Virus record (IMG/VR): IMGVR_UViG_3300038530_001000
Span: 1-54,267 of that record
Strand: one strand, 5' to 3'
Length of the DNA stretch: 54,267 nt
From: a virus
Taxonomy: Duplodnaviria > Caudoviricetes
Shown: positions 10,005 through 42,896 of the stretch, in pieces
Numbering within the stretch: position 1 is the stretch's first letter
How the letters are laid out: each line of letters begins with the position of its first letter
Notes under the pieces: model-generated
Told to the model about the DNA's origin: nothing
Database searches by the model: none
Seen by the model: only the letters and a program-made list of their open reading frames with translations
Program-made: the position numbers and the translations under genes

Positions 10005-10514
10005 CTATTGATCGGCAAATGCAGGTGCAGTTGTGCTCGTAACATTCCCGAAGATTTGATAGTTCGTCGTGTTCAAACCAACGATGGTTACATCAAATCC
10101 AGCAGGCACATTCAACTGTATGCTGCTGTTAGAGTTGCCATCAGAGAATACTGAACTCACCTCGTTACCATCCGTATCTAGGAAAGTAACACCACCAATA
10201 TAAAAATTAGTGTTGCCGGGAGTAAGAATAAGCGCGTCCGTAGCATCAGCAGCGCCACCAGCGTAAACAAACCTAAAAACAGATCCAGCAATAGGAGCCG
10301 GAAGCGTATAAGTATTATCTTGACCACCGTCTGGAACCAGCAGAATTCTGCCGCTGTGGGTTGCGTTAGTTAAGGTTACGTCTGCATCAGCCAAGCTGAC
10401 TGGGCCGTCGCCCAAAGTTGCAACCTCAGTGATAGCCCCAGTGGTCGCATTTTTACTGATCGTCTTAAAGGTGCTTTCGGATCTGATAGCACCAGAGAAA
10501 GTTGTATTAGCCAT
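10005..10514 (-). CDS. Virion structural protein (head fibre / decoration-like)
   Basis: MANTTFSGAIRSE N-terminus, TYTLPAP..G..FRF motif; directly after the capsid terminator. Confidence 0.7.
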   Translation of the reverse strand: MANTTFSGAIRSESTFKTISKNATTGAITEVATLGDGPVSLADADVTLTNATHSGRILLVPDGGQDNTYTLPAPIAGSVFRFVYAGGAADATDALILTPGNTNFYIGGVTFLDTDGNEVSSVFSDGNSNSSIQLNVPAGFDVTIVGLNTTNYQIFGNVTSTTAPAFADQ

Positions 10515-10566
10515 TATGTTCTCCTGTCTTGGCTAGTGTCAGCGTTCCACGTGGAACATCTGTCAG

Positions 10567-10596
10567 GAAAAAAGGAGTGGCCCCGAAGGGCCACCC
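10567..10596 (-). terminator. Rho-independent terminator after major capsid gene
   Basis: Minus strand GTGGCCC-TTCG-GGGCCAC (cUUCGg loop) followed by TCC and a T-run. Confidence 0.9.
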
Positions 10597-10604
10597 AAAG
10601 TGCT

Positions 10605-11513
10605 CTAGCTAGAGCCTGGTGATCCGTAGATTCCAAGTGGGTCAGACACTCCAAAAGAGTATCTTTCCCTGGCTTTGTATCTCACGTTACCAGTATCGAA
10701 GTCACCGTCCATAGACGTTTCTAGCGGAGTACGCTCGAACATCTTCATGCCATTCGGTACATCAGTGATGATGAAGAAAGCATTGCTATCAGTCAGGTAG
10801 TGATTGACTGCGTAGCCTTCTGGGATCGCACCCATGTTACGAATCGCGTTGATGTCGTTATCCGCCGTTCCAACTCGCTGAGTGGTTTCTAGCAGACGAT
10901 CTGCTGTAAACATCAGTGCGGGGGGAACAATCAAACGACGTGGACGTGCAGCAATCAGAAGGCCGCGCTCATCTGTGAACGCAGCGATCTCAATGACCGC
11001 ATTTTCCAATGACGTTTCGTTAAGGTCAGCACCCGTAGATGGACGGTTGGAGTTGGTTCCACCGTTTACTAGGGGGTGTGAAGCATTGAAAAGGGTTACG
11101 CCATCTCCAGATTGGAAGGTGTCGAAACCATTGTTCAGCGGGTTTGCCGCCTTAACTTGCTTGGTGTAAGCCATAGCGCGAGACAGCGCCTTGGTATAAC
11201 GAGCAGAAAGAGAATCGTAGAGATTATCTTCCATGGCCTCCTCCGTAATGGCGAAGCCCATCGAAATTGTCTCGTGATTATACCTGGCTGTAAAAGACTC
11301 TTGTGCTGAGTCGTAGCTCGTTGCCGCACCCTCTGCCTTAACAGGAGCCGCCGCAAAGCCTGACAGCTTCACCTCTTCCTCGAACGAACGATCAGAGCTT
11401 TCAGTCTCATAAATGAGAGTGTGCTCGTCTTCGTATTTTTCATACTCCAACCCGAAAAGGGCATTAAGCCCCGGAAGGAGTTCTTTCAGCATTTGCGCTC
11501 TTGAAATTGCCAT
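10605..11513 (-). CDS. Major capsid protein (HK97 fold, Mu gpT-like family)
   Basis: MAISRAQMLKELLPGLNALFGLEY...GDGVTLFNASHPL...DFDTGNVRYKARERYSFGVSDP; follows scaffold; strong terminator downstream. Confidence 0.9.
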   Translation of the reverse strand: MAISRAQMLKELLPGLNALFGLEYEKYEDEHTLIYETESSDRSFEEEVKLSGFAAAPVKAEGAATSYDSAQESFTARYNHETISMGFAITEEAMEDNLYDSLSARYTKALSRAMAYTKQVKAANPLNNGFDTFQSGDGVTLFNASHPLVNGGTNSNRPSTGADLNETSLENAVIEIAAFTDERGLLIAARPRRLIVPPALMFTADRLLETTQRVGTADNDINAIRNMGAIPEGYAVNHYLTDSNAFFIITDVPNGMKMFERTPLETSMDGDFDTGNVRYKARERYSFGVSDPLGIYGSPGSS

Positions 11514-16758: not shown

Positions 16759-17175
16759 CTATCCGTTCTTCGTGAACTTCTGAGTTCGAGCCGCACCAGA
16801 GCCACGGGCAACGGTGTTTCCTCCGTTCTTTCGATCCATCATGGTGGCACCGCCATTCGCCATCATCTTGGGAGACATTCTCACACCATCCTTGGTCATC
16901 ATGCTCATGGTTTTGCCGCCACCCATCATCTTGCCTTTACCATCTACGGTGAAGGAGGGCACCATCTCACCTGTCCTGGGATCTTTAGACATAGGCATTT
17001 TTGTGCTTTTGCCAGATGCCATCATCTTGGTAGACATCTTAGTCTTCTTGCCACCAGCCATGCCCATCTTGGTTCGTCTTCCGCCAGCCATACCCATTTT
17101 GGTTTTCTTGCCACCGGCATAACCCATCTTGGTTTTTTTGCCGCCAGCGTAGCCCATTTTAGACTTCTTCTTCAT
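16759..17175 (-). CDS. Met/Lys/Gly-rich basic repeat protein
   Basis: ATG at 17175; tandem 10-aa repeats KMGYAGGKKT; C-terminal ARGSGAAR. Confidence 0.75.
   Translation of the reverse strand: MKKKSKMGYAGGKKTKMGYAGGKKTKMGMAGGRRTKMGMAGGKKTKMSTKMMASGKSTKMPMSKDPRTGEMVPSFTVDGKGKMMGGGKTMSMMTKDGVRMSPKMMANGGATMMDRKNGGNTVARGSGAARTQKFTKNG
17036..17165 (-). repeat. About four imperfect 30-nt tandem repeats encoding KMG(Y/M)AGG(K/R)(K/R)T
   Basis: e.g. cttgccaccagccatgcccatcttggtt / cttgccaccggcataacccatcttggtt. Confidence 0.85.
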
Positions 17176-17851
17176 CGCCTGCTCCTGCATAGAGGTTATC
17201 GAATACTTGATTTACATCTAACGTGTAATCTAAATCAGATTTGCTGTAGTGAATGTGCTGCGATGGTCTGAAGTCTGGGGCACCTTCGCCCACCTCGAAC
17301 CACGCAGGATGCGTCACTCTAACCCGATTGTTGGGCAAAGCAACGATGTTTCCTGTCCACGGCCCTGCATCCAAAAGCTCCATCACATGCGACTGCTTGT
17401 GTTGTGCAGGATCATCCGCGATCTCATTGTTGGTGTAATCCACGGTGAACAAATACTTAGCCGGATACATCTCACCATCAATCTTTGCCAGCCAAGGACA
17501 CGGCGTACACCGATCAAGCACATACACTGAGTGCTCTCTGGAACTGCAATCCCAAGGCTGCGCTGCCCATGTGGGCATTGGGTCAGGCCACTCTTCTAAC
17601 GGCGTATCAGCAACCAAACCCGTAATCGGCATCCTTGCCCACATCGCACCGCCATGAACATTTGGTTCATCGCTATCGTAGGTTTCTGCCCCGGTGAATA
17701 TCACCTGGAAACTCAAGCTACGACACGGCATGGTGGTTACAGCGATTGCCATCGCATGTAAGAACTCACCGTGATACTTGATGTGGTTGTGTGTGTATTC
17801 CTTCCTAACCCAGCACTTGAAGTACGGGATGTTGCTTTGCAAAAAAGCCAT
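17159..17851 (-). CDS. Conserved phage protein of unknown function
   Basis: NIPYFKCWVRKEY...GGAMWARMPI...QPWDC...YLFTVD...HKQSHV...GNIVALPNNRVR. Confidence 0.8.
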   Translation of the reverse strand: MAFLQSNIPYFKCWVRKEYTHNHIKYHGEFLHAMAIAVTTMPCRSLSFQVIFTGAETYDSDEPNVHGGAMWARMPITGLVADTPLEEWPDPMPTWAAQPWDCSSREHSVYVLDRCTPCPWLAKIDGEMYPAKYLFTVDYTNNEIADDPAQHKQSHVMELLDAGPWTGNIVALPNNRVRVTHPAWFEVGEGAPDFRPSQHIHYSKSDLDYTLDVNQVFDNLYAGAGDEEEV

Positions 17852-20267: not shown

Positions 20268-20485
20268 TGCACCGAACCGCCCTATATAGTGGCACCAATC
20301 CTATAGCCCCAAATACCCCACAAACAGACCACATCTAACGACCCACATTAAGTGGCGCTTCGTGTAAACTCTGCCTTCGTCAACACTTTTTACCCTGATC
20401 GGCAAAATTCCCACAGGCTACTTTTCGTAATACAAACAACAACTTACGAATCATGACCAACAGGAATATAACCCTTTCTCATAAT

Positions 20486-20890
20486 TCGCGGTACGTTCGT
20501 CGTGATTCGTGATCTCTTGAATGCCAACGGCGACGGGGAGCCGACTGAATCCCGCCACTCAACAGGGTGTAAGCGAGTCCTGCAACGGGCAGCGCTGCCG
20601 AGTGACCTTCCCAGACTAGGCAAGTTCTGGTGCTAGATAGACGCGACACTGCCGTACCGGACGGGCAGCCAGTGAAGCGGTAGGGGAAACCCTTTTGCAA
20701 GCCTAGCAGCGCATAACAAGCGTGCAGCCTAAACCGGTGTTGAAGCCTAGGGTTGAACGGCTAGTGAAGTGAGTCCCGTACGGGCAGCACTGCTAGACCG
20801 GCCCGACAGCGTGCCATCGGCCAACGAACTGCGAGAGATGTTGTTTTACCAGAGCGCACTAGCAATCGGGCTAGTGCTTTCGAGTGAACC
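20486..20890 (+). ncRNA. Candidate large structured leader RNA of the early operon
   Basis: Ends complementary (GTTCGT/ACGAAC), repeated AAGYGAGTCC..ACGGGCAGCRCTGC motif, GGG-GAAA-CCC hairpin, GCACTAGC/GCTAGTGC hairpin; no credible ORF. Confidence 0.5.
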
Positions 20891-20919
20891 AACAAAGCAA
20901 AACACAACGGAGAAAATCC

Positions 20920-21060
20920 ATGGAACTAAATGACCACATAGCATTCGAGGATCTAATGATCGAGCAGGAAATCGAGACCGCAGGTCTCACCGACCTAGTC
21001 GAGGCGAAGGTAATACCAACGGAAGAACTCGACCGAATACTTAACGAACTTGGAGTGTAA
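20920..21060 (+). CDS. 46-aa very acidic first early protein (below the ORF track cutoff)
   Basis: RBS CGGAG; MELNDHIAFEDLMIEQEIETAGLTDLVEAKVIPTEELDRILNELGV. Confidence 0.75.
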   Translation: MELNDHIAFEDLMIEQEIETAGLTDLVEAKVIPTEELDRILNELGV

Positions 21061-21063
21061 GCA

Positions 21064-21315
21064 ATGACCTATGAAGTAGTGACAGCAGACCGCACCTTTG
21101 GCGGCTACCTAAATAATACCGAGTACAGCGTGCGAATCGAGAAAGATAGCGAGCGTTTCTATGTCCTCAAATACATAGATGACGAGCACATCGGAACGAC
21201 TCGTATCTCGATTGCTCAGCGTGGGGAACAGGGAGCACTGAAACAAGCGCGAATATATGTGGACGAGTTTCTCGCCACATGCAGCAACTGGCGTTACCGA
21301 AGATCCCCTAAGTAA
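21064..21315 (+). CDS. Early hypothetical protein
   Basis: RBS GGAG; operon context. Confidence 0.7.
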   Translation: MTYEVVTADRTFGGYLNNTEYSVRIEKDSERFYVLKYIDDEHIGTTRISIAQRGEQGALKQARIYVDEFLATCSNWRYRRSPK

Positions 21316-21376
21316 CTGTCGAAACCGCTCCGGCGGTCTGCATCGATTGGCCCCGATGCACTGATGAGACAGGCCA
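21316..21376 (+). ncRNA. Type II hammerhead ribozyme
   Basis: CTGTC-GAAA-CCGC(TCCG)GCGG-TC-TGCATCG(ATTGGCCC)CGATGCA-CTGATGA-GACAG-GCCA: full core, three perfect stems, GUC site, loop I / 3' tail pseudoknot. Confidence 0.95.
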
Positions 21377-21405
21377 CCGAATTCTATAACCAACGGAGAA
21401 ATCCT

Positions 21406-21669
21406 ATGCTGAACAAAGCATATCTAAACGACGAACTGACAGAAGAACTAGGTTACGACCTGTTCAAAGTCAACAACGATATAAACGGTAACCCGCGTTA
21501 CGTGATCCATTTTCTGGCATTCGCCAACACATACGACGAAGCGCACGCCATCGCAAAATCTATCGGCTTTCAGAAGTACCGAGGCAAAGACTTTGGCGGC
21601 GGTTTCGTTGGTCAAAGCTACAGCGTCCAAGGCACCGCGCAGGACATCATCAGAGTGAGAAACAAGTAG
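21406..21669 (+). CDS. Early hypothetical protein (NNDINGNPRYVIHF family)
   Basis: RBS CGGAG, ATG at 21406; KYRGKDFGGGFV.QSY. Confidence 0.75.
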   Translation: MLNKAYLNDELTEELGYDLFKVNNDINGNPRYVIHFLAFANTYDEAHAIAKSIGFQKYRGKDFGGGFVGQSYSVQGTAQDIIRVRNK

Positions 21670-21680
21670 GAGATTCTAAC

Positions 21681-22616
21681 GTGAAGAAACAAGCAAACAA
21701 ATTCAATCAGATCACCGAGACGATCATCAAACAGATGGAGACCCACGGCACCAACTGGACAAAGCCATTCACCGATGGTCAGGGCGGTATGCCGCGCCGG
21801 GCATTCGATGGGCGCAAGATGTACCGAGGCATCAACATACTGATGCTGGGCATGTGTGGCGGCTACTGGGCCACCTATGACCGATGGCAGCAAGAGGGAT
21901 ACCAAGTCCGCAAGGGCGAGAAATCCAGCACCGTGTACTTCTGGGCAGAACGGAAGAAAGAAGACCCAGAGACTAAGGAAGAGGTGAAGTTCTGGGTGTT
22001 CAACTCATACCATGTTTTCTCTGCTGATCAACTAGAAGTGGCTGGTGTGGCATGTATGCGCCGAGTCAAGGGCAGCAAGAAAAAAGAGCAGTTTATCAGC
22101 AAGGCATGGGTGAACCCCAACCCCACCGAGTTCAATGACGAGACTGAAATAATCCAGGCAGCAGATGAGTGGATCAACGCAACAGGTGCCGACGTGCGCC
22201 ACAGTGCGAAGGGTGCAGCGTACTACTCACACGCCGACTTTATCCACATGCCGAACCGTGAGCTATTCCTTGGCAGCGAGACCGCTAGCCCAACGCATTG
22301 CTATTACTCAACATTCTTTCACGAACTAACGCACTGGACGGGTGCCTCGCACCGACTGAGCCGTGAGAAGGGTCACAAGTTTGGCGACAAGAAGTATGCA
22401 TTCGAGGAGCTTGTCGCTGAGCTAGGCGCAGCGTTTCAGTGCGCTTTGCTGGGCATCTCGATGGAACCCAAGCCAGACCATGCCGAGTATCTCGCCAACT
22501 GGCTGACCTGTTTGAAAGAGCAGCCCAAGGCTATCTACAAGGCAGCATCACTGGCGCAGCAGGCGGTGGACTACATCGCCAAGTGCCAACCTATCAATCA
22601 AGAGGAGGCCGCGTAG
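21681..22616 (+). CDS. ardC: ArdC-like ssDNA-binding antirestriction protein with zincin-like domain
   Basis: W.KPF, YRGIN, WATY..W...G.QVRKGEK, VF.ADQ, D.IHMP, YYSTFFHELTHWTG (HExxH), YAFEELVAELGA, HAEYLANWL. Confidence 0.92.
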   Translation: MKKQANKFNQITETIIKQMETHGTNWTKPFTDGQGGMPRRAFDGRKMYRGINILMLGMCGGYWATYDRWQQEGYQVRKGEKSSTVYFWAERKKEDPETKEEVKFWVFNSYHVFSADQLEVAGVACMRRVKGSKKKEQFISKAWVNPNPTEFNDETEIIQAADEWINATGADVRHSAKGAAYYSHADFIHMPNRELFLGSETASPTHCYYSTFFHELTHWTGASHRLSREKGHKFGDKKYAFEELVAELGAAFQCALLGISMEPKPDHAEYLANWLTCLKEQPKAIYKAASLAQQAVDYIAKCQPINQEEAA

Positions 22617-22635
22617 CGGCCCCAGAGGTAGACAA

Positions 22636-22833
22636 ATGATCTTAACTGACACTAACGGAAAACGCTGGAAGCTCCACGCTCGGCTGAGCGGTGAGAGGTA
22701 TCAGATATATCCGAACCACTCACAATTAAATCTTAGCGAAGAGGACGGCGACCGTCCGACTACTGGCCTAACAATACCCGACCACATTGCCGACGAATGG
22801 ATTGCGGGCAGGGTGAGAGTCAAAGTTGATTAA
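22636..22833 (+). CDS. Early hypothetical protein
   Basis: RBS GAGG. Confidence 0.6.
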   Translation: MILTDTNGKRWKLHARLSGERYQIYPNHSQLNLSEEDGDRPTTGLTIPDHIADEWIAGRVRVKVD

Positions 22834-22843
22834 GGAGAAAAAC

Positions 22844-23074
22844 ATGCACACCTATCTTTCAGACGATCAGATCGACCGCATGGCAGATGCAGCGGTCACA
22901 ACATACGAAGTCGGTTGCGACTGGAACGGGGCGTTACAGGCAGCGATTGAATACAGCCTCGATGAGTACGGCATACGCCCTCGAAAATCAGCGGCATTGC
23001 TGGCACTGAAGCTGGCTAAAACTAAATGGCAAGGACGGGTGATGGCAGTGAAGCGTGCCATCGCTAATCAATAA
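22844..23074 (+). CDS. Early hypothetical protein
   Basis: RBS AAGGAG, ATG at 22844. Confidence 0.7.
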   Translation: MHTYLSDDQIDRMADAAVTTYEVGCDWNGALQAAIEYSLDEYGIRPRKSAALLALKLAKTKWQGRVMAVKRAIANQ

Positions 23075-23084
23075 GGAGAACAAC

Positions 23085-23474
23085 ATGGTAGTAACAAAAG
23101 AAAACTCACCAGTCTTTGATGGCATATGGCACTCAAGCAATGGTGATGCCCACGTCATACCAGAAGCTTGGATGCTTTGCCCTAGATGCAATGGCGAAGG
23201 CAAGCATGGCAACCCCGCATTCGATGGCATGAGCATGTCTGAATTGCATGAGCAGGATCACTGGGACGACGACTTCGTAGATGGCTATATGTCAGGACGC
23301 TATGACGTTACCTGCGAGGAGTGCAAAGGACGCACCACCGTCAGAGGGTACAACCTATCGAAGCTCACACCAGAGCTTCTCGAAGAATACTTTGCAGACG
23401 TGCGAGATATCGAAACCCAGCGATACGAAGATTGGAAAACATATCAGGCGGAGATGGGATACCGACCCTACTAA
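23085..23474 (+). CDS. Zinc-finger protein (DnaJ-type CxxCxGxG)
   Basis: CPRCNGEG and CEECKGR; RBS AAGGAG. Confidence 0.75.
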   Translation: MVVTKENSPVFDGIWHSSNGDAHVIPEAWMLCPRCNGEGKHGNPAFDGMSMSELHEQDHWDDDFVDGYMSGRYDVTCEECKGRTTVRGYNLSKLTPELLEEYFADVRDIETQRYEDWKTYQAEMGYRPY

Positions 23475-23489
23475 CAACAGGAGAAAAAC

Positions 23490-23750
23490 ATGAGAGAGAA
23501 AATCAAGTCCCTGACCTTGAAAGACTTAGTAAACATCGTTGAGCAGACGATAGATCACTACGATCTAACCCTGCCAAATTCATATCGAGTCGCTGAGTTG
23601 AACCAACTTAAAAGGTTAGCCAACGATCCAAACATACGGCCCGAACCCACCGAACTGGACTTAGCTAGATTCGATGTGCTCATTGATTACATGCAAGACC
23701 AAATCATTGATCAGCAAATTGACCGAGTTGTTGCGACTCGTTGCTCGTGA
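23490..23750 (+). CDS. Early hypothetical protein
   Basis: RBS CAGGAG. Confidence 0.65.
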   Translation: MREKIKSLTLKDLVNIVEQTIDHYDLTLPNSYRVAELNQLKRLANDPNIRPEPTELDLARFDVLIDYMQDQIIDQQIDRVVATRCS

Positions 23751-37256: not shown

Positions 37257-40200
37257 CTATTCGGTGCGCCCCACGATCTCGCTGTACTTACGATTAAACC
37301 TATCGTAAGCAGCCTTCTTCATGGCCTGCAACTCCTCTTCTTCCTCTGCGTACCGCTTGGCAGCAGAGGGATTTTCGTTCGCCATGCCGCGCAACTCGCG
37401 CAGCCTCTTGTTTACTAGACGTATTTCTTTGTCTGTAGCTCGAACCATGGGTGCCATGGATATGAAGGGCTGGTTTTCTTCCAAGTAATCTAAGAAGTCT
37501 TGCCGATCTTGTATGACATCGAGTTGGTTCTCTCTTTGTAGAACCCTCGTTCTGCGCTCATAGAAATCTGTTTGGCTAGTTCTGTGATCAACCTCGCCTG
37601 CTATGCGACGATAGAACGGTATATCGTTAACCGATATGTCCTCCTCGTTAGCAAGCTTTCGGAATGCCTCTACTGTTCTCAAGCCAGTGGCCCCAGCGCC
37701 ACCTAGTGCGTAATTGAACAGATGCTGAATTTTGTCTGGGGAAAAATCCAACGCGCCTGGTACTGATTCGTTTCCACCAGTAAGACCATTCATAATCTTA
37801 GCGGCATTCTTAAAGCCTTCAAAAGTAGACTGCTTTGCGAGTTGACTAAGCGGTTGCTCTACACCGTAAGGTACTTGCTCAGAATACACCGGGGCACCAA
37901 AGAAGTTTTCGTTGGACAGTATTTCAAGCACAGGCTGACCGATTGTAGGAAATCCAGTCTTGGCAAGCATGGTCAAAAAGTCTTTGGACTCTGATATGCC
38001 AATCGGGTTGAATGAACCAAGCAATGCCTTTGTGACAAGTGTTGCCGCTTCCTCTGGCGACTTCATGCCGGACATCATCTCTTGAATGTTTGCACCCAAG
38101 ACGTGGAAAGCGTTGTATCCGTAAGGCAGAGGTATGGTGTAATAGTCCTTACCATTGTCTTTCATTATCACTATGTTTCTTTCTTTCACATAGTTAGGGA
38201 TGTTGGCGTAGAAAGACTCACCATTATCGTCTTCATCACTCATCGCCTCTGCCAAGGCAGATAGCAAAGCTCCCGATCCAACCATACTGGCGACCATGCC
38301 TTGCTTAACTCTTGACGCTCTTGGATCAAACACATTTAAGCCGCGAGCAAAGTTCATAGTGCCCTGCACCGATGCATTAAAGAACAAGTACAGGCTATTA
38401 AGTAGCTGACCTTGATCTCCTGATCTATTGAAGTTGACAGTGAGGTTCTTAGCAAGCGTTGCTGCTTTAGCTATAGCCTCATCTCTGGGGATACCGTTTG
38501 CGATAAATTCATCTCTTGCAGCCTTGAACGATGCAAATCTCACACCGTTTTCTACTGCCGCATTTGAATCCTCTACTAGGTTTAAGATCGTATCTCTAGC
38601 TTCCTTGGCCTTACCTTTGTAAGTGCCTTTAGCCATCTCGATCATGCTATCGATAGTAGCCTTTTGCTGTTCAGGTGGCCTACTGTGAAACCAATCAGCT
38701 TTTGCACCAGCCGTTATATATTCTTCATAATCCTTGCGTTGCTCATTAGTCTGCTTATCACTGTTTCTGAAGCCCCTGTAGAAAGCGCGGATTGAAGGCA
38801 GAGTGTCCTTTATGACCTTGCCGACGATGCGAGTGTCCATCGCTTTGCCTTCCGGCATACTTTGCTCGCCAATGATATTGTAAACGGCAGTCTGGATGTC
38901 TCTTGCAAAGTTACCGACCACGAACTCTGGGTTGAAAGAAGTGTTAACCGCTGACAAGAATCTGTTTACAGCCCCTAACGATTGAATAATCTTGCTGCTG
39001 TTAGACGCATCAAGGTTCAATAAAGCCTTACGAAGATTGTCATCCTTAATATCAATCGCAACCTGCTCGCCGTTAATCTTCACGCCGAACATCTCTCTGG
39101 GTAGGGACTGCCCCTCTCGCATCACAACCTTTTTGACGTACAGCCTACGCTCTGATTCTGGCAGTCCAGGCGGAATCTTTTGCACACGTTCACCCGTTGG
39201 CAGATAGGTGTACACCGACTCCAACATGCGAGTGTATTTTGGGTTGTCCTGATCGTAGACTTCCCAAGAGTTTGGGTTGGGGTTGTTCTTCGCTAAAGCA
39301 TAAAGTTTTTGACCGAACTCTTTGTTCTTCGCTGATCGAGCGATAGCCCTTTCTCTATCTGATATCACCGTTGCTAACGGAGATTCAGCAGCACTTTCTC
39401 TGCCCAAAGCCCTGCGAGTCTCTGCTCCTTCGATGCTTACTTTGCCAGAAGATCCAGAGGTGGGAGATAAGAACTGAGATGAGAAATCATCCTCTATCTC
39501 TTTGCCCTTCAGGGGCACATAGTATTTGTAAAAACCACTGAGAAGATTTTTGTCCTCTTGAGAATACAACCCGCCTTCTGTGTTTGTATCTATCGTTTTC
39601 TGAATGATCGAGTCAACTTTACTGGCAAGCTTACCCAGCACCCTTGCTCTTTGGTTGCCGCCAGACCACTCTCCAGTCTTGTCGTTCCACTTCAAATCGT
39701 ACTGATCCCTCATGCGATCTGTAACGTATTGATTTGTAAGTCTTACCTCTTCACCGTCAACAACAATGCTACCCGCGCCACCGTCAGGTATGCGATCATT
39801 GATCTGTGAGATCCGCTTGTTACGCTCTAGCGCATGTCGCAGGATAAGAAAATCATCTAGCTCTTTGATTGCCTCCTGCGTGCTTTTCTGCGTGTTCGCT
39901 GCTGCAAGTTCATCGACCAGCGGTTGCACTTCTTCCCTTTGAAAGACTCTGGCTGTTTCACCTATTTTCCCCGGTATGGATTCTTCACCTATATAGGCTG
40001 ACTCAAGTGCTGCTATTGGCTCTTGACCCAAAGCAACCCTAGCTTTGTTGATAGCCTCTTCGATCTTCTTTAGACCGATAAACTTATCAGCCACGTTGAA
40101 AATAAATCTGTCACCACGGGTCATCACGGGTGTTTCAAAGGAACTGTATTCGTTCTCAGGCAACCCCTGCTCAGCCCTCTTAACGACAGGAGGGCGCACG

Positions 40201-42896
40201 TTGCCGTCTATATTGTCCTGCGTAATGATGTCTTGATCAGACTTGCTGGCTATTGTGTCTACCGTTTTGTTGGCCTTATTGACCTTAAATCCAGCGTCGA
40301 GATCTGCTTGTTTGTCTAGTGCAGATGATTCGCTATCTTGCAGGAACTTCTGAGCGCCAGTAGGTGTAGGGGTTGCTGGCGTGATTATCGGATCAGGATC
40401 GGGTGCAACTTCTAGCACAGGCTCTGGATCAGGCTGGGGTGATGGTGTTAAGACCTTACCGTTTTCATCGATTACAGATTGATCAACTAGCTCTTGACGC
40501 AGCTTCTCGATCTTCTTCTGGGTGAGAGGCGATTGATCGATGAGACCTGATGCCTGTTGTATGCGCTCAACGCTTGCATCATTGAAGTCCTGAACGGCTT
40601 GTTTGACTGAGCGAAACTGCTCACGGGTGAAAGGCTTGGGGGTAAAGAAGTTTTTGGGCAGCTTGGTAGGCTGCTCGAATCTCGGTAATGCACGGAGCTT
40701 AAAGTAAAACAACTCCCTCTCTGCAAGGGTCATCTTGCTTAGATCTCTTTTGCCAACAAATGCCTTAGCTATAGCCTTGATATCGTTAGAGTTTGTCTTA
40801 GCATCGATGTTCTTGTTGTCGAGTAGCTTCTGTATCTCGCTAGCAGCTTTGCCGCCTTCGAGATCTACCAGCCCTCTGGGTACGGGGCCGGTGCCTATCG
40901 CAGCATTCTGCGTGTTAGCAAAGTACCTCGCGTCAGCAAGGCTTTTGAATTTCACTTTTGCATCAGGGTTTATACCTTCTTTGATGCTTTGTGCTCGCTC
41001 TCTCTGATTCTGTGGACGGAACGTGCTAGTGACACCATCAGTCGATGTGACAACAGGCTCGCCTTTTTTGTTTCTTCCAACGGTATAACTTTCTGATTCT
41101 GTTCTAGCCTTTACTTGTATACCAATCAGCTTGTCCATCTGCTCTGGTGTCAGAATAGATGCAGCTTCTTCAGAGGTGAATGTATCCGATGGCGCAAGAC
41201 CTCTTCGCTCTCGGTCATTGTTAAGCCTGACCGAGGCAGGCAACTCGCTCTGGTTCAGAGAGGATCGACCAGTAAGCTCGATGATCTCTTCAAATGTAGA
41301 AGTCTCTGGGAATGTGATTAAGTTTCCGTCAGAGTCTTTGGCTAAATATGTGGTGCCTGCTGCTTCGTTAATAGCTGTTGAAGTGAATGTGTTCGCTTCA
41401 GGTTGCACAACTCGACTGTGGATCACCCTCAACTTGTCGGCTTGATCCTTGTCGTAAGTCTGAGGTGCCATATCCATAGCATCTGTCGCTTGCTCTCGGA
41501 TATTTTTATCTACGACCTTGGTGTTTAGACCGTCTACTAAAGCGAGTGCGTCATTCTTTCGCACCGGTGTACCAAAGTTTTTTTCTGAACCCGACTCGAA
41601 GACTTGAAACAACTGAGCACCACCAGGGTTTGGCACCTCTCGCATTTCAAACTTGCCAGACCTGGGGAAGTATGGCCCCATTACCCTAGCAATTTCGTCT
41701 GTGTAATTAACGCCAGGAGGCGGCTTGCGAATGGCAGAGGGATCTCGCCTTTCTATCTCCTGCCTTCTAATGTCAGCCTCTTCTATCGCTGCTATTTCTA
41801 GCTTTCTTTGTTCAAGGGCTGCGAGGTCTTGATCTGCCTGGGTCTCTAGGGCTAGTTGTTCTATTGCCTGATCTGCTCTAGTCAACGCTTCCGAACGAAC
41901 CCTTTCGTTTTCTGCAAGCTCCTCGTCAAACTCTACTTGGTCTCTTACCTCTTTCCCGGCTTGATCTGCATCCTTATCCATCTCTGCGTTTGTAGAGATG
42001 TTTGATCTACGACCAGCAGCAGATGTCACCACAAGATCAGCAAGCGCACCAACAGCGCCGCCAACAGTCAAGTCATCTAACAAAGAATCAGCGACCTGTA
42101 TGTTTTCGTTATATAAACCTTGTTCTACTAAATCTTGCGCCACACCAGCAGAAGCTTCTTGTATTGCCTCTATGCTCCCCGTTGCAGCAGCACTCTTGAT
42201 ACGATCAATAACATCCTTCTTGACAGCATCATCAGCAACTTTTCGGATGTTGCCAAACAGGCGCATGGGAGTTGCCAACTCGGTTAGACCAATAGCGGTG
42301 CCTGCAAAGATAGCTTGATCTTCTGTCGCCTGATCTACATTGATCCCGGCATCTCTTGCAGCCTGTATACGTTGCGCTTGATCGCCAGCGCCAGCACCTG
42401 CACCAAGGCCGACAGCACCTGTAAACTCGGCGCCTTTCAGTGCCTTACCGCTCACTCCTGCAACACGGGCTAACACACCAGGGGTCAAGAATGTTGCTAG
42501 AGATCCGATGCCCTCACCTACCTTGGTAGTCCAAGCATCTCTGTATTGTTCGCCAGGGGCCAAGAAGCTTTGGTTGAGAGACTTTCTGCCCTCTCTTGCA
42601 AAGTTAACTAGCTCGTTTTCTTCTCCACTGTCGATAGCATTTTCGAGGCCAAAGAAGTTTGTTGTGGCATCAGCCAACTCACCAATACCTTCAGCAGATG
42701 ACAAGAATCCAGAGGCAAAACCACGAGGTATTGCTTTCGCAAACTCACCAGCTTGACCGAGAACAGAGCCTTCTGCCTCGACAGGGGTGCCGAAGTATTC
42801 AGAAAATATATTATCTAGTTCTTCTTCTGTTGGGGGCTTTGCACCCTCAAGAGTCAGAGTTCGACCCTGTGGATCGGTTACCGTAAAGATAGGCAT
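37257..42896 (-). CDS. Large internal virion / DNA-ejection protein with C-terminal LPD38-like domain
   Basis: 1879 aa; NPEFVVGNFARD, VENGVRF, AKNLTVNFNRSG...LYLFFNASVQG, IPLPYG, NENFFGAPV; last gene of the ejection cluster. Confidence 0.8.
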   Translation of the reverse strand: MPIFTVTDPQGRTLTLEGAKPPTEEELDNIFSEYFGTPVEAEGSVLGQAGEFAKAIPRGFASGFLSSAEGIGELADATTNFFGLENAIDSGEENELVNFAREGRKSLNQSFLAPGEQYRDAWTTKVGEGIGSLATFLTPGVLARVAGVSGKALKGAEFTGAVGLGAGAGAGDQAQRIQAARDAGINVDQATEDQAIFAGTAIGLTELATPMRLFGNIRKVADDAVKKDVIDRIKSAAATGSIEAIQEASAGVAQDLVEQGLYNENIQVADSLLDDLTVGGAVGALADLVVTSAAGRRSNISTNAEMDKDADQAGKEVRDQVEFDEELAENERVRSEALTRADQAIEQLALETQADQDLAALEQRKLEIAAIEEADIRRQEIERRDPSAIRKPPPGVNYTDEIARVMGPYFPRSGKFEMREVPNPGGAQLFQVFESGSEKNFGTPVRKNDALALVDGLNTKVVDKNIREQATDAMDMAPQTYDKDQADKLRVIHSRVVQPEANTFTSTAINEAAGTTYLAKDSDGNLITFPETSTFEEIIELTGRSSLNQSELPASVRLNNDRERRGLAPSDTFTSEEAASILTPEQMDKLIGIQVKARTESESYTVGRNKKGEPVVTSTDGVTSTFRPQNQRERAQSIKEGINPDAKVKFKSLADARYFANTQNAAIGTGPVPRGLVDLEGGKAASEIQKLLDNKNIDAKTNSNDIKAIAKAFVGKRDLSKMTLAERELFYFKLRALPRFEQPTKLPKNFFTPKPFTREQFRSVKQAVQDFNDASVERIQQASGLIDQSPLTQKKIEKLRQELVDQSVIDENGKVLTPSPQPDPEPVLEVAPDPDPIITPATPTPTGAQKFLQDSESSALDKQADLDAGFKVNKANKTVDTIASKSDQDIITQDNIDGNVRPPVVKRAEQGLPENEYSSFETPVMTRGDRFIFNVADKFIGLKKIEEAINKARVALGQEPIAALESAYIGEESIPGKIGETARVFQREEVQPLVDELAAANTQKSTQEAIKELDDFLILRHALERNKRISQINDRIPDGGAGSIVVDGEEVRLTNQYVTDRMRDQYDLKWNDKTGEWSGGNQRARVLGKLASKVDSIIQKTIDTNTEGGLYSQEDKNLLSGFYKYYVPLKGKEIEDDFSSQFLSPTSGSSGKVSIEGAETRRALGRESAAESPLATVISDRERAIARSAKNKEFGQKLYALAKNNPNPNSWEVYDQDNPKYTRMLESVYTYLPTGERVQKIPPGLPESERRLYVKKVVMREGQSLPREMFGVKINGEQVAIDIKDDNLRKALLNLDASNSSKIIQSLGAVNRFLSAVNTSFNPEFVVGNFARDIQTAVYNIIGEQSMPEGKAMDTRIVGKVIKDTLPSIRAFYRGFRNSDKQTNEQRKDYEEYITAGAKADWFHSRPPEQQKATIDSMIEMAKGTYKGKAKEARDTILNLVEDSNAAVENGVRFASFKAARDEFIANGIPRDEAIAKAATLAKNLTVNFNRSGDQGQLLNSLYLFFNASVQGTMNFARGLNVFDPRASRVKQGMVASMVGSGALLSALAEAMSDEDDNGESFYANIPNYVKERNIVIMKDNGKDYYTIPLPYGYNAFHVLGANIQEMMSGMKSPEEAATLVTKALLGSFNPIGISESKDFLTMLAKTGFPTIGQPVLEILSNENFFGAPVYSEQVPYGVEQPLSQLAKQSTFEGFKNAAKIMNGLTGGNESVPGALDFSPDKIQHLFNYALGGAGATGLRTVEAFRKLANEEDISVNDIPFYRRIAGEVDHRTSQTDFYERRTRVLQRENQLDVIQDRQDFLDYLEENQPFISMAPMVRATDKEIRLVNKRLRELRGMANENPSAAKRYAEEEEELQAMKKAAYDRFNRKYSEIVGRTE

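Follow-up and report, generated by a model that had tools for sequence, protein, structure and literature searches.

The window analysed here covers all 54,267 bases of an IMG/VR virus record whose completeness is rated at 98%. Its small and large terminase genes lie upstream of the locus of interest on the minus strand, with portal, major head and tail genes farther on, and a block of small plus-strand genes diverges from this terminase and structural module. Two small genes into that block, on the coding strand between the co-oriented ORFs 21064-21315 and 21406-21669, is a ribozyme-like element at 21316-21376 (+). The gap that holds it (21316-21405) is the sole gap of at least 40 nt that the ORF list leaves among the putative plus-strand genes from 20884 to about 25700. 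Ahead of the gap are a first leader cistron (20884-21060, +) and, in the same list, an 83-aa gene (21064-21315, +) that matches no Pfam family, has counterparts with 98% and 75% amino acid identity in two viral records, and ends in the stop codon TAA at 21313-21315. As had been claimed from the sequence at the outset, the ribozyme begins on the base directly after this stop.

The distance to the ribosome-binding site (RBS) on the other side had been put at about 15 nt and is actually 18 nt, counted from the end of the ribozyme tail at 21376 to the GGAG at 21395. The Shine-Dalgarno sequence, GGAGA (21395-21399, +), stands with 7 nt between GGAG and the ATG, and the same leader is kept in two related viral records (G001 and G050). 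In the window this leader serves an 87-aa TreK-like gene (21406-21669, +; PF24229, Phage_TreK, E 1.2e-20; phrog_3164; 55 related viral loci). Next comes ardC (21681-22616, +), which encodes an ArdC N-terminal domain (PF08401, ArdcN, 1.7e-23) and a zincin-like metallopeptidase domain (PF18818, MPTase-PolyVal, 6.9e-43). The original prediction had located the ribozyme upstream of ardC; ardC does lie downstream on the same strand, but as the second gene, the TreK-like gene being the first.

We call the plus-strand block early on the strength of its gene content, and we assume from strand and spacing that the genes flanking the element are co-transcribed. A consensus scan for sigma-70-like promoters found 0 between 20000 and 23000, where 2.3 were expected by chance. 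Between the divergent terminase and small-gene blocks lie 616 nt (20268-20883) with no putative gene; this stretch holds no consensus promoter and a group II intron match at chance level (E 0.68). Searches of GenBank phages by DNA returned no relatives at either 'near' or 'distant' sensitivity.

Elsewhere in the window, a near-threshold match to the Rfam Mu-gpT-DE RNA (RF03012; 48 bits, cut-off 49, E 4.7e-8) at 10512-10568 (-) occupies the space immediately behind the major head gene (10605-11513, -; phrog_371), as far as the point where the next ORF begins. A 143-aa ORF at 16759-17190 (-), between the portal gene and the next minus-strand ORF, consists largely of Lys/Met/Gly-rich repeats with KKTKMGYAGG-like units. 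A protein of 1879 aa is encoded at 37257-42896 (-), and its C-terminal ~950 residues match the ends of PHROG families (phrog_14770, E 2e-187; phrog_616) made up of phage proteins of 2800-3900 residues without known function.

Anatomy of the hammerhead motif

Judged by its sequence, the element is a canonical type II hammerhead ribozyme, and the stems, core, cleavage site and loop I/tail pairing originally described for it agree base for base with our own reading. Stem II opens with CUGUC (21316-21320, +), of which only GUC (21318-20) belongs to stem II across the class, and is followed by the core nucleotides G12 A13 A14 (21321-21323, +). The stem III hairpin (21324-21337, +) pairs ACCGC (21324-28) with GCGGU (21333-37), that is, A15.1-U16.1 (A21324-U21337) plus four more pairs, around a UNCG-type tetraloop, UCCG. 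From the position in the Rfam alignment, cleavage is predicted after C17 (21338, +), with U21339 as the new 5'-OH end. The stem I hairpin (21339-21360, +) has 7 bp, formed by UGCAUCG (21339-45) and CGAUGCA (21354-60), and a loop of AUUGGCCC (21346-53). The remaining core, C3 U4 G5 A6 U7 G8 A9 (CUGAUGA, 21361-21367, +), leads into the 3' strand of stem II, GACAG (21368-21372, +), in which G10.1 (21368) pairs with C11.1 (21320). Stems I and III are thus closed by loops and stem II is open, which is the type II permutation. Under the criteria that Perreault et al. 2011 set for accepting a hammerhead (PMC3088659, in excerpt), which give the core as C3 U4 G5 A6 N7 G8 A9 G12 A13 A14 A15 U16 H17, the core is complete and no mispair adjoins it; the adjoining pairs are all standard (10.1-11.1, G21368-C21320; 1.1-2.1, U21339-A21360; 15.1-16.1, A21324-U21337).

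The 3' tail, GGCCA (21372-21376, +), can pair with UGGCC of loop I (21348-52) in a pseudoknot of 4-5 bp. The complementarity of GCCA (21373-76) to UGGC (21348-51) had already been pointed out; in the register shared by the class, G21372 pairs in addition with C21352, giving the 5-bp run UGGCC/GGCCA. The locus therefore carries the pseudoknot of at least four pairs, between loop I and the nucleotides after stem II, that is a trait of most RF02276 members. G21372 can serve either a fifth stem II pair (C21316-G21372) or the fifth pair of the pseudoknot, so the two compete. In another type II hammerhead, one added stem II pair left activity substantially lower (PMC3088659, in excerpt), and by analogy the possible 5-bp stem II of this copy, formed at the pseudoknot's expense, would count against full activity.

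The original prediction had proposed Rfam Hammerhead_II as a check, and cmscan of the whole window at gathering thresholds returned RF02276 at 21317-21378 (+) as its sole match, with 38.5 bits against a cut-off of 37 (E 2.5e-4, or 5.8e-8 for the single family on this record) and a full-length alignment covering model positions 1-66 of 66. A custom covariance model, built from 25 other phage hammerheads, scored the window copy at 52.6 bits (E 4.6e-10). Neither Rfam, at gathering thresholds and at E <= 1, nor this 25-sequence class model found a second hammerhead in the 54,267 bases. The same window gave matches to sbrA and group II RNAs at E about 0.7, which we took as chance, and no tRNAs.

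The unconstrained minimum free energy fold is exactly the three hammerhead helices. Its energy is modest relative to shuffled sequences (z -1.70; 10 of 200 shuffles fold as well or better), and in a 271-nt context the three helices make up ~0.32 of the ensemble, a figure that does not include the pseudoknot term.

We also considered the AUG of CUGAUGA as a start codon lying within the core. In the window and in the distantly related record G002 it is in frame and open into the downstream gene, but in G050 a stop codon closes the frame; over the class as a whole, 29 of 97 such AUGs are in frame, the proportion that chance gives. We rejected this candidate.

Related records and the wider class

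The motif is kept in three related viral records, G001, G050 and G002. In G001 and G050 the ribozyme differs from that of the window by a single substitution, through which a C-G pair of stem I becomes U-G. Hammerhead_II scores of 36.3 bits (G001), 36.5 bits (G050) and 32.8 bits (G002) fall below the cut-off of 37, and Rfam at gathering thresholds, run on 40 of the 56 relatives' loci, gave no match; the relatives' copies, just below the cut-off, are detected only at E-value thresholds and by the 25-sequence model. In G050 there is a second, weak Hammerhead_II match (L061; G050:C1:40265-40325, -; 16.9 bits, E 0.03 for the record), which is probably chance.

G002 is only distantly related and has other genes altogether on both sides of the ribozyme; the order of stop codon, ribozyme, RBS and start is the same. 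Its pseudoknot reads UUAACC/GGUUAA where the window has UGGCC/GGCCA, a difference that includes two compensatory changes. These observations bear on the idea that the element is a chance match or a decayed, inactive copy. The window's Rfam score, 1.5 bits above the cut-off, and the sub-threshold scores of 36.3 bits (G001) and 36.5 bits (G050) would suit such a reading; against it, every core position is intact, the class-specific model gives E 4.6e-10, and a relative as distant as G002 keeps the motif with compensatory changes. We consider this explanation extremely improbable. The motif is confirmed as a real type II hammerhead, an RNA predicted to cut itself.

G050 is syntenic with the window across the terminase region, at about 80% identity, and lacks the TreK-like gene; there, the same ribozyme and leader run directly into the ATG of ardC. 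A 90-nt unit of ribozyme plus leader is kept up to the ATG in three records (the window, G001 and G050), and the gene behind it is TreK-like in the window and G001 and ardC in G050. The boundary between presence and absence of the TreK-like gene (window 21406-21669 versus L057 3318-3346 in G050) falls exactly at the start codon behind the shared leader. In G001, the TreK-like gene is followed by an ArdC-like N-terminus that differs.

At the nucleotide level, the window and G050 agree at 202/252 positions in the upstream gene, 65/66 in the ribozyme, 23/24 in the leader and 878/936 in ardC. The ribozyme therefore stands at the edge of a block of high identity, from which its own conservation cannot be separated. 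We accordingly claim no purifying selection from this comparison: the 65/66 of the ribozyme adjoins the 878/936 of ardC, and the two are inseparable.

To survey the class, we searched IMG/VR with the two core blocks common to the window and G002, which yielded at least 120 viral stretches. The survey is a sample, and it covers only hammerheads with the window's exact core flanks. Among the distinct matches listed, 122 of 125 can be read as hammerheads that have a GUH site and a pair of hairpins. Between loop I and the tail, the longest stretch of complementary bases has a mean of 4.96 nt among the matches listed, compared with 3.33 nt when the tails are exchanged at random between sequences (maximum 3.59 in 200 shuffles), and the pseudoknot covaries class-wide. 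In a gapless alignment of 25 sequences, the pseudoknot helix is 92% paired and three of its five pairs have changed on both sides; stems I and III are 100% paired by construction in this alignment, whose members were chosen for parsing with 6-bp stems. A model-fitted alignment is 99.5% paired, with two-sided changes in 13 of 15 pairs, and leans towards the model's own structure. Stem III is capped by a tetraloop in 94 of 120 of the matches listed, of which 35 are UNCG, the group to which the window's UCCG belongs, and 18 GNRA. Applied to 100 sources totalling 1.0 Mb, the class model gave 183 matches, often clustered. Dense clusters, each spanning ~3 kb, occur in other viral contigs, with nine matches in L102 (3615-6710), seven in L077 (8400-11328) and seven in L138 (230-2686), a density well above that of the window with its lone copy.

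Placement was surveyed over 132 distinct contexts from 115 loci by a simple ORF heuristic, with no gene caller and with upstream ORFs of at least 50 codons. Among the matches listed, 0-1 nt separate the upstream stop from UCGAAAC in 82 of the 128 contexts that have such an ORF, and no more than 7 nt do so in 104; in 54 contexts stem II begins with the G of UAG. On the other side, a start codon lies 13-36 nt past the motif in 90 of 124 contexts and an SD-like core is present in 105, the RBS standing about 26 nt after the ribozyme (again among the matches listed). The order stop codon, ribozyme, RBS is the rule among the matches listed, and the window, with 3 nt from stop to UCGAAAC and 32 nt from motif to start, is typical.

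So tight a junction with the upstream gene raises the possibility that cleavage is gated by translation: a ribosome that reaches the stop codon of the upstream ORF would open stem II and one half of stem III, so that cleavage would report on upstream translation. The zero distance in the window between the stop codon and the first possible stem II base speaks for this, as do the 82 of 128 contexts with the stop 0-1 nt before UCGAAAC and the 54 of these in which the stop itself supplies the first stem II base. Tight packing is, however, expected anyway in compact phage genomes, the window's stop codon lies outside the class-wide stem II, and the ribosome footprint argument is textbook reasoning. 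We hold translational gating to be decidedly improbable.

The genes directly downstream encode 94 distinct proteins, mostly small and without an assigned function. Pfam matched 11 of them (four phi29-type SSB, three DUF932, one ArdA, one TreK, which is the window's own, and two others), and PHROGs added two anti-restriction families, RusA, a RecE-like exonuclease and more. This diversity fits an explanation in which the ribozyme is an insulator rather than a stabiliser. After cleavage, the downstream gene would always have one and the same 5' leader (stem I hairpin, core remnant and RBS), independent of context, so that any gene behind it would be predictably expressed and ribozyme plus leader would form a portable junction for gene shuffling. 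RiboJ is a synthetic part with a comparable insulating use. Besides the very diverse downstream genes, with their Pfam matches in only 11 of 94, this explanation can draw on the constancy of the 90-nt unit in three records in front of differing genes (TreK-like or ardC), and on the step in window/G050 identity from 202/252 in the upstream gene to 65/66 in the ribozyme. Yet the case consists of three related records and a single indel, the step in identity could simply be a normal recombination boundary, and predicted RBS accessibility is unchanged on cleavage; we regard insulation as unlikely. Gating and a portable junction could also act jointly, in that the fate of the TreK-like/ardC message would depend on translation of the leader ORF and the leader would be a socket for swapped early genes (TreK-like here, ardC in G050), a combination that we consider quite unlikely.

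Relation to ardC and TreK-like genes

The original prediction had connected the ribozyme with the ardC mRNA; a specific tie to ardC was not supported. A Pfam ArdC domain (ArdcN or MPTase-PolyVal) occurs in 0 of the 94 directly downstream proteins. ArdC homologues are found in 8 of the 120 class loci listed, always on the ribozyme's strand and at varying positions on both sides of it: directly upstream of the ribozyme in L088 and L179, about 330 nt downstream in L142 and L111, and at times kilobases off. With a close ArdC relative in G050 only, and ArdC positions that vary among the class loci, a hammerhead-ardC link does not hold as a rule. We found no literature that links hammerheads with ardC; the supplementary gene-context tables of the 2011 paper lay outside the scope of this search, and the papers that name both terms concern human ribozymes, going by their titles and the openings of their abstracts. 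Given the variable positions, such a link would in our reading of the loci be no finding anyway.

The TreK-like gene is no firmer a partner. A Hammerhead_II match (E <= 0.1) is present in 3 of 50 viral records that bear a TreK-like gene and absent from the other 47, from which it follows that the TreK-like gene needs no ribozyme. The class model adds copies in L053 and L045/L046, lying 460-730 nt upstream of the TreK-like gene. Since positions vary and few TreK-like records carry a match, the ribozyme is tied to this kind of operon, not to ardC or TreK.

The same scatter could be read as that of a passenger, a hammerhead that cleaves and spreads with recombining gene blocks and brings the phage no benefit. 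The match in only 3 of 50 TreK-bearing records and the varying positions relative to ardC are compatible with this, and a 2019 review, in the excerpt available, still calls the role of bacterial and phage hammerheads unknown (PMC6765202). However, across phages that have diverged widely, compensatory changes have kept core, stems and pseudoknot intact, and the placement between stop and RBS is highly stereotyped. This compensatory maintenance and stereotyped placement argue for selection, and we consider a pure passenger very improbable.

Proposed processing of the transcript

We think it likely that the element is an active, cis-cleaving type II hammerhead within the polycistronic message of the small plus-strand genes. 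Once transcribed, the RNA would fold into its three helices, be locked by the pairing of loop I with the 3' tail, a pseudoknot of 4-5 bp, and cut itself between C21338 and U21339 with no protein needed. Hammerheads cut after C17 and leave a 2',3'-cyclic phosphate and a 5'-OH. In the window, such a cut would put the two leader cistrons (20884-21060 and 21064-21315) and the TreK-like/ardC message on separate RNAs. The upstream RNA would run to 23 nt beyond its stop codon and finish in the stem III hairpin with a 2',3'-cyclic phosphate; the downstream product would start with a 5'-OH at the base of the stem I hairpin, on its first paired base, 56 nt before an unchanged RBS.

Because of the type II topology, both new ends would be hairpins with unusual termini, with predicted energies of -8.8 kcal/mol for the stem III-side end (21316-21338) and -9.0 kcal/mol for the stem I hairpin (21339-21360). 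Ends so structured and chemically unusual may resist exonucleases and 5'-end-dependent decay. That a 5'-OH end would stabilise the message is reasoned from textbook RNase E biology and from the general principles of RNA decay in bacteria. The likely pay-off of cleavage would be to uncouple the two parts of the transcript, each with a decay and a translation of its own. What the sequences show is the motif, with its conservation and covariation, and its stereotyped position; what we infer is that the RNA cuts itself in vivo, that the neighbouring genes share its transcript and that stability is affected at all. Among the sequencing runs listed for 20300-23500, none was of RNA. We propose no gain in translation, because the predicted accessibility of the RBS is unchanged on cleavage: the unpaired probability of the SD is predicted as 0.42 in the uncleaved and 0.46 in the cleaved RNA. 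Unmasking of the RBS by cleavage was thus rejected for this copy.

Early-gene RNase III sites of T7 are long duplexes cut by a host protein enzyme, which leaves 5'-phosphate and 3'-OH ends. The likeness to the window is functional only, in that both would be intercistronic structures that cut a polycistronic early transcript and leave hairpins at the new ends. A T7 site is a long imperfect duplex, whereas the longest helix in the window's element is 7 bp, which places it outside that family, and the window RNA is predicted to cut itself and to leave 5'-OH and 2',3'-cyclic phosphate ends.

Processing of the phage's polycistronic transcript is the likeliest role. Protein-free cutting of that transcript, as originally proposed, would be a natural consequence of the predicted ribozyme, and it coincides with the published hypothesis for phage hammerheads, that of Perreault et al. 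2011, in which long phage transcripts are cut into shorter messages (PMC3088659, in excerpt). According to the same excerpts, hammerheads adjoin ardA in prophages of Agrobacterium tumefaciens and Legionella, and prophage hammerheads cleave in vitro and, within polycistronic constructs of about 2 kb, in E. coli (PMC3088659). The window resembles these clustered prophage hammerheads in its position between co-oriented small genes, in an operon with an anti-restriction gene, and in the proposed role. It differs in that the clustered cases have several ribozymes bracketing genes, and the window has one in 54 kb; their anti-restriction gene is ardA, and that of the window is ardC, the second gene downstream.

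With type II hammerheads at large (RF02276; PMC3088659, in excerpt), the window copy has in common the core, the topology, the loop I/tail pseudoknot of at least four pairs and the intergenic position in a phage. Nothing essential differs, apart from the ability of this copy to extend stem II to 5 bp at the cost of one pseudoknot pair. Excerpts of a cyPhyRNA-seq study (PMC8782182) report in vivo cleavage by three type II hammerheads of Desulfovibrio vulgaris that lie close to phage-like genes. These are of the same type and have hypothetical as well as phage-like genes nearby, but their setting is chromosomal or prophage, in a cultured bacterium. A link between self-cleavage and translation initiation has been reported for RNA viruses that infect fungi and plants (PMC13725137, in excerpt); that setting is eukaryotic and cap-related, and is a distant analogy at most. 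On the function of phage hammerheads, our literature search found nothing beyond the 2011 hypothesis and the 2019 review.

Phage ribozymes of this class are common and have been known since 2011, with a role that is still unproven, and the one in the window is a clean, conserved and ordinary case. Its value is modest and is that of a test case: the 54-kb genome is nearly complete and has only one ribozyme, which lies behind the first two small genes of an operon. G050 supplies a natural variant, in which the same ribozyme and leader stand before a different gene. Comparison of an active with a dead copy could separate an effect on message stability from insulation of translation, and both from no effect.
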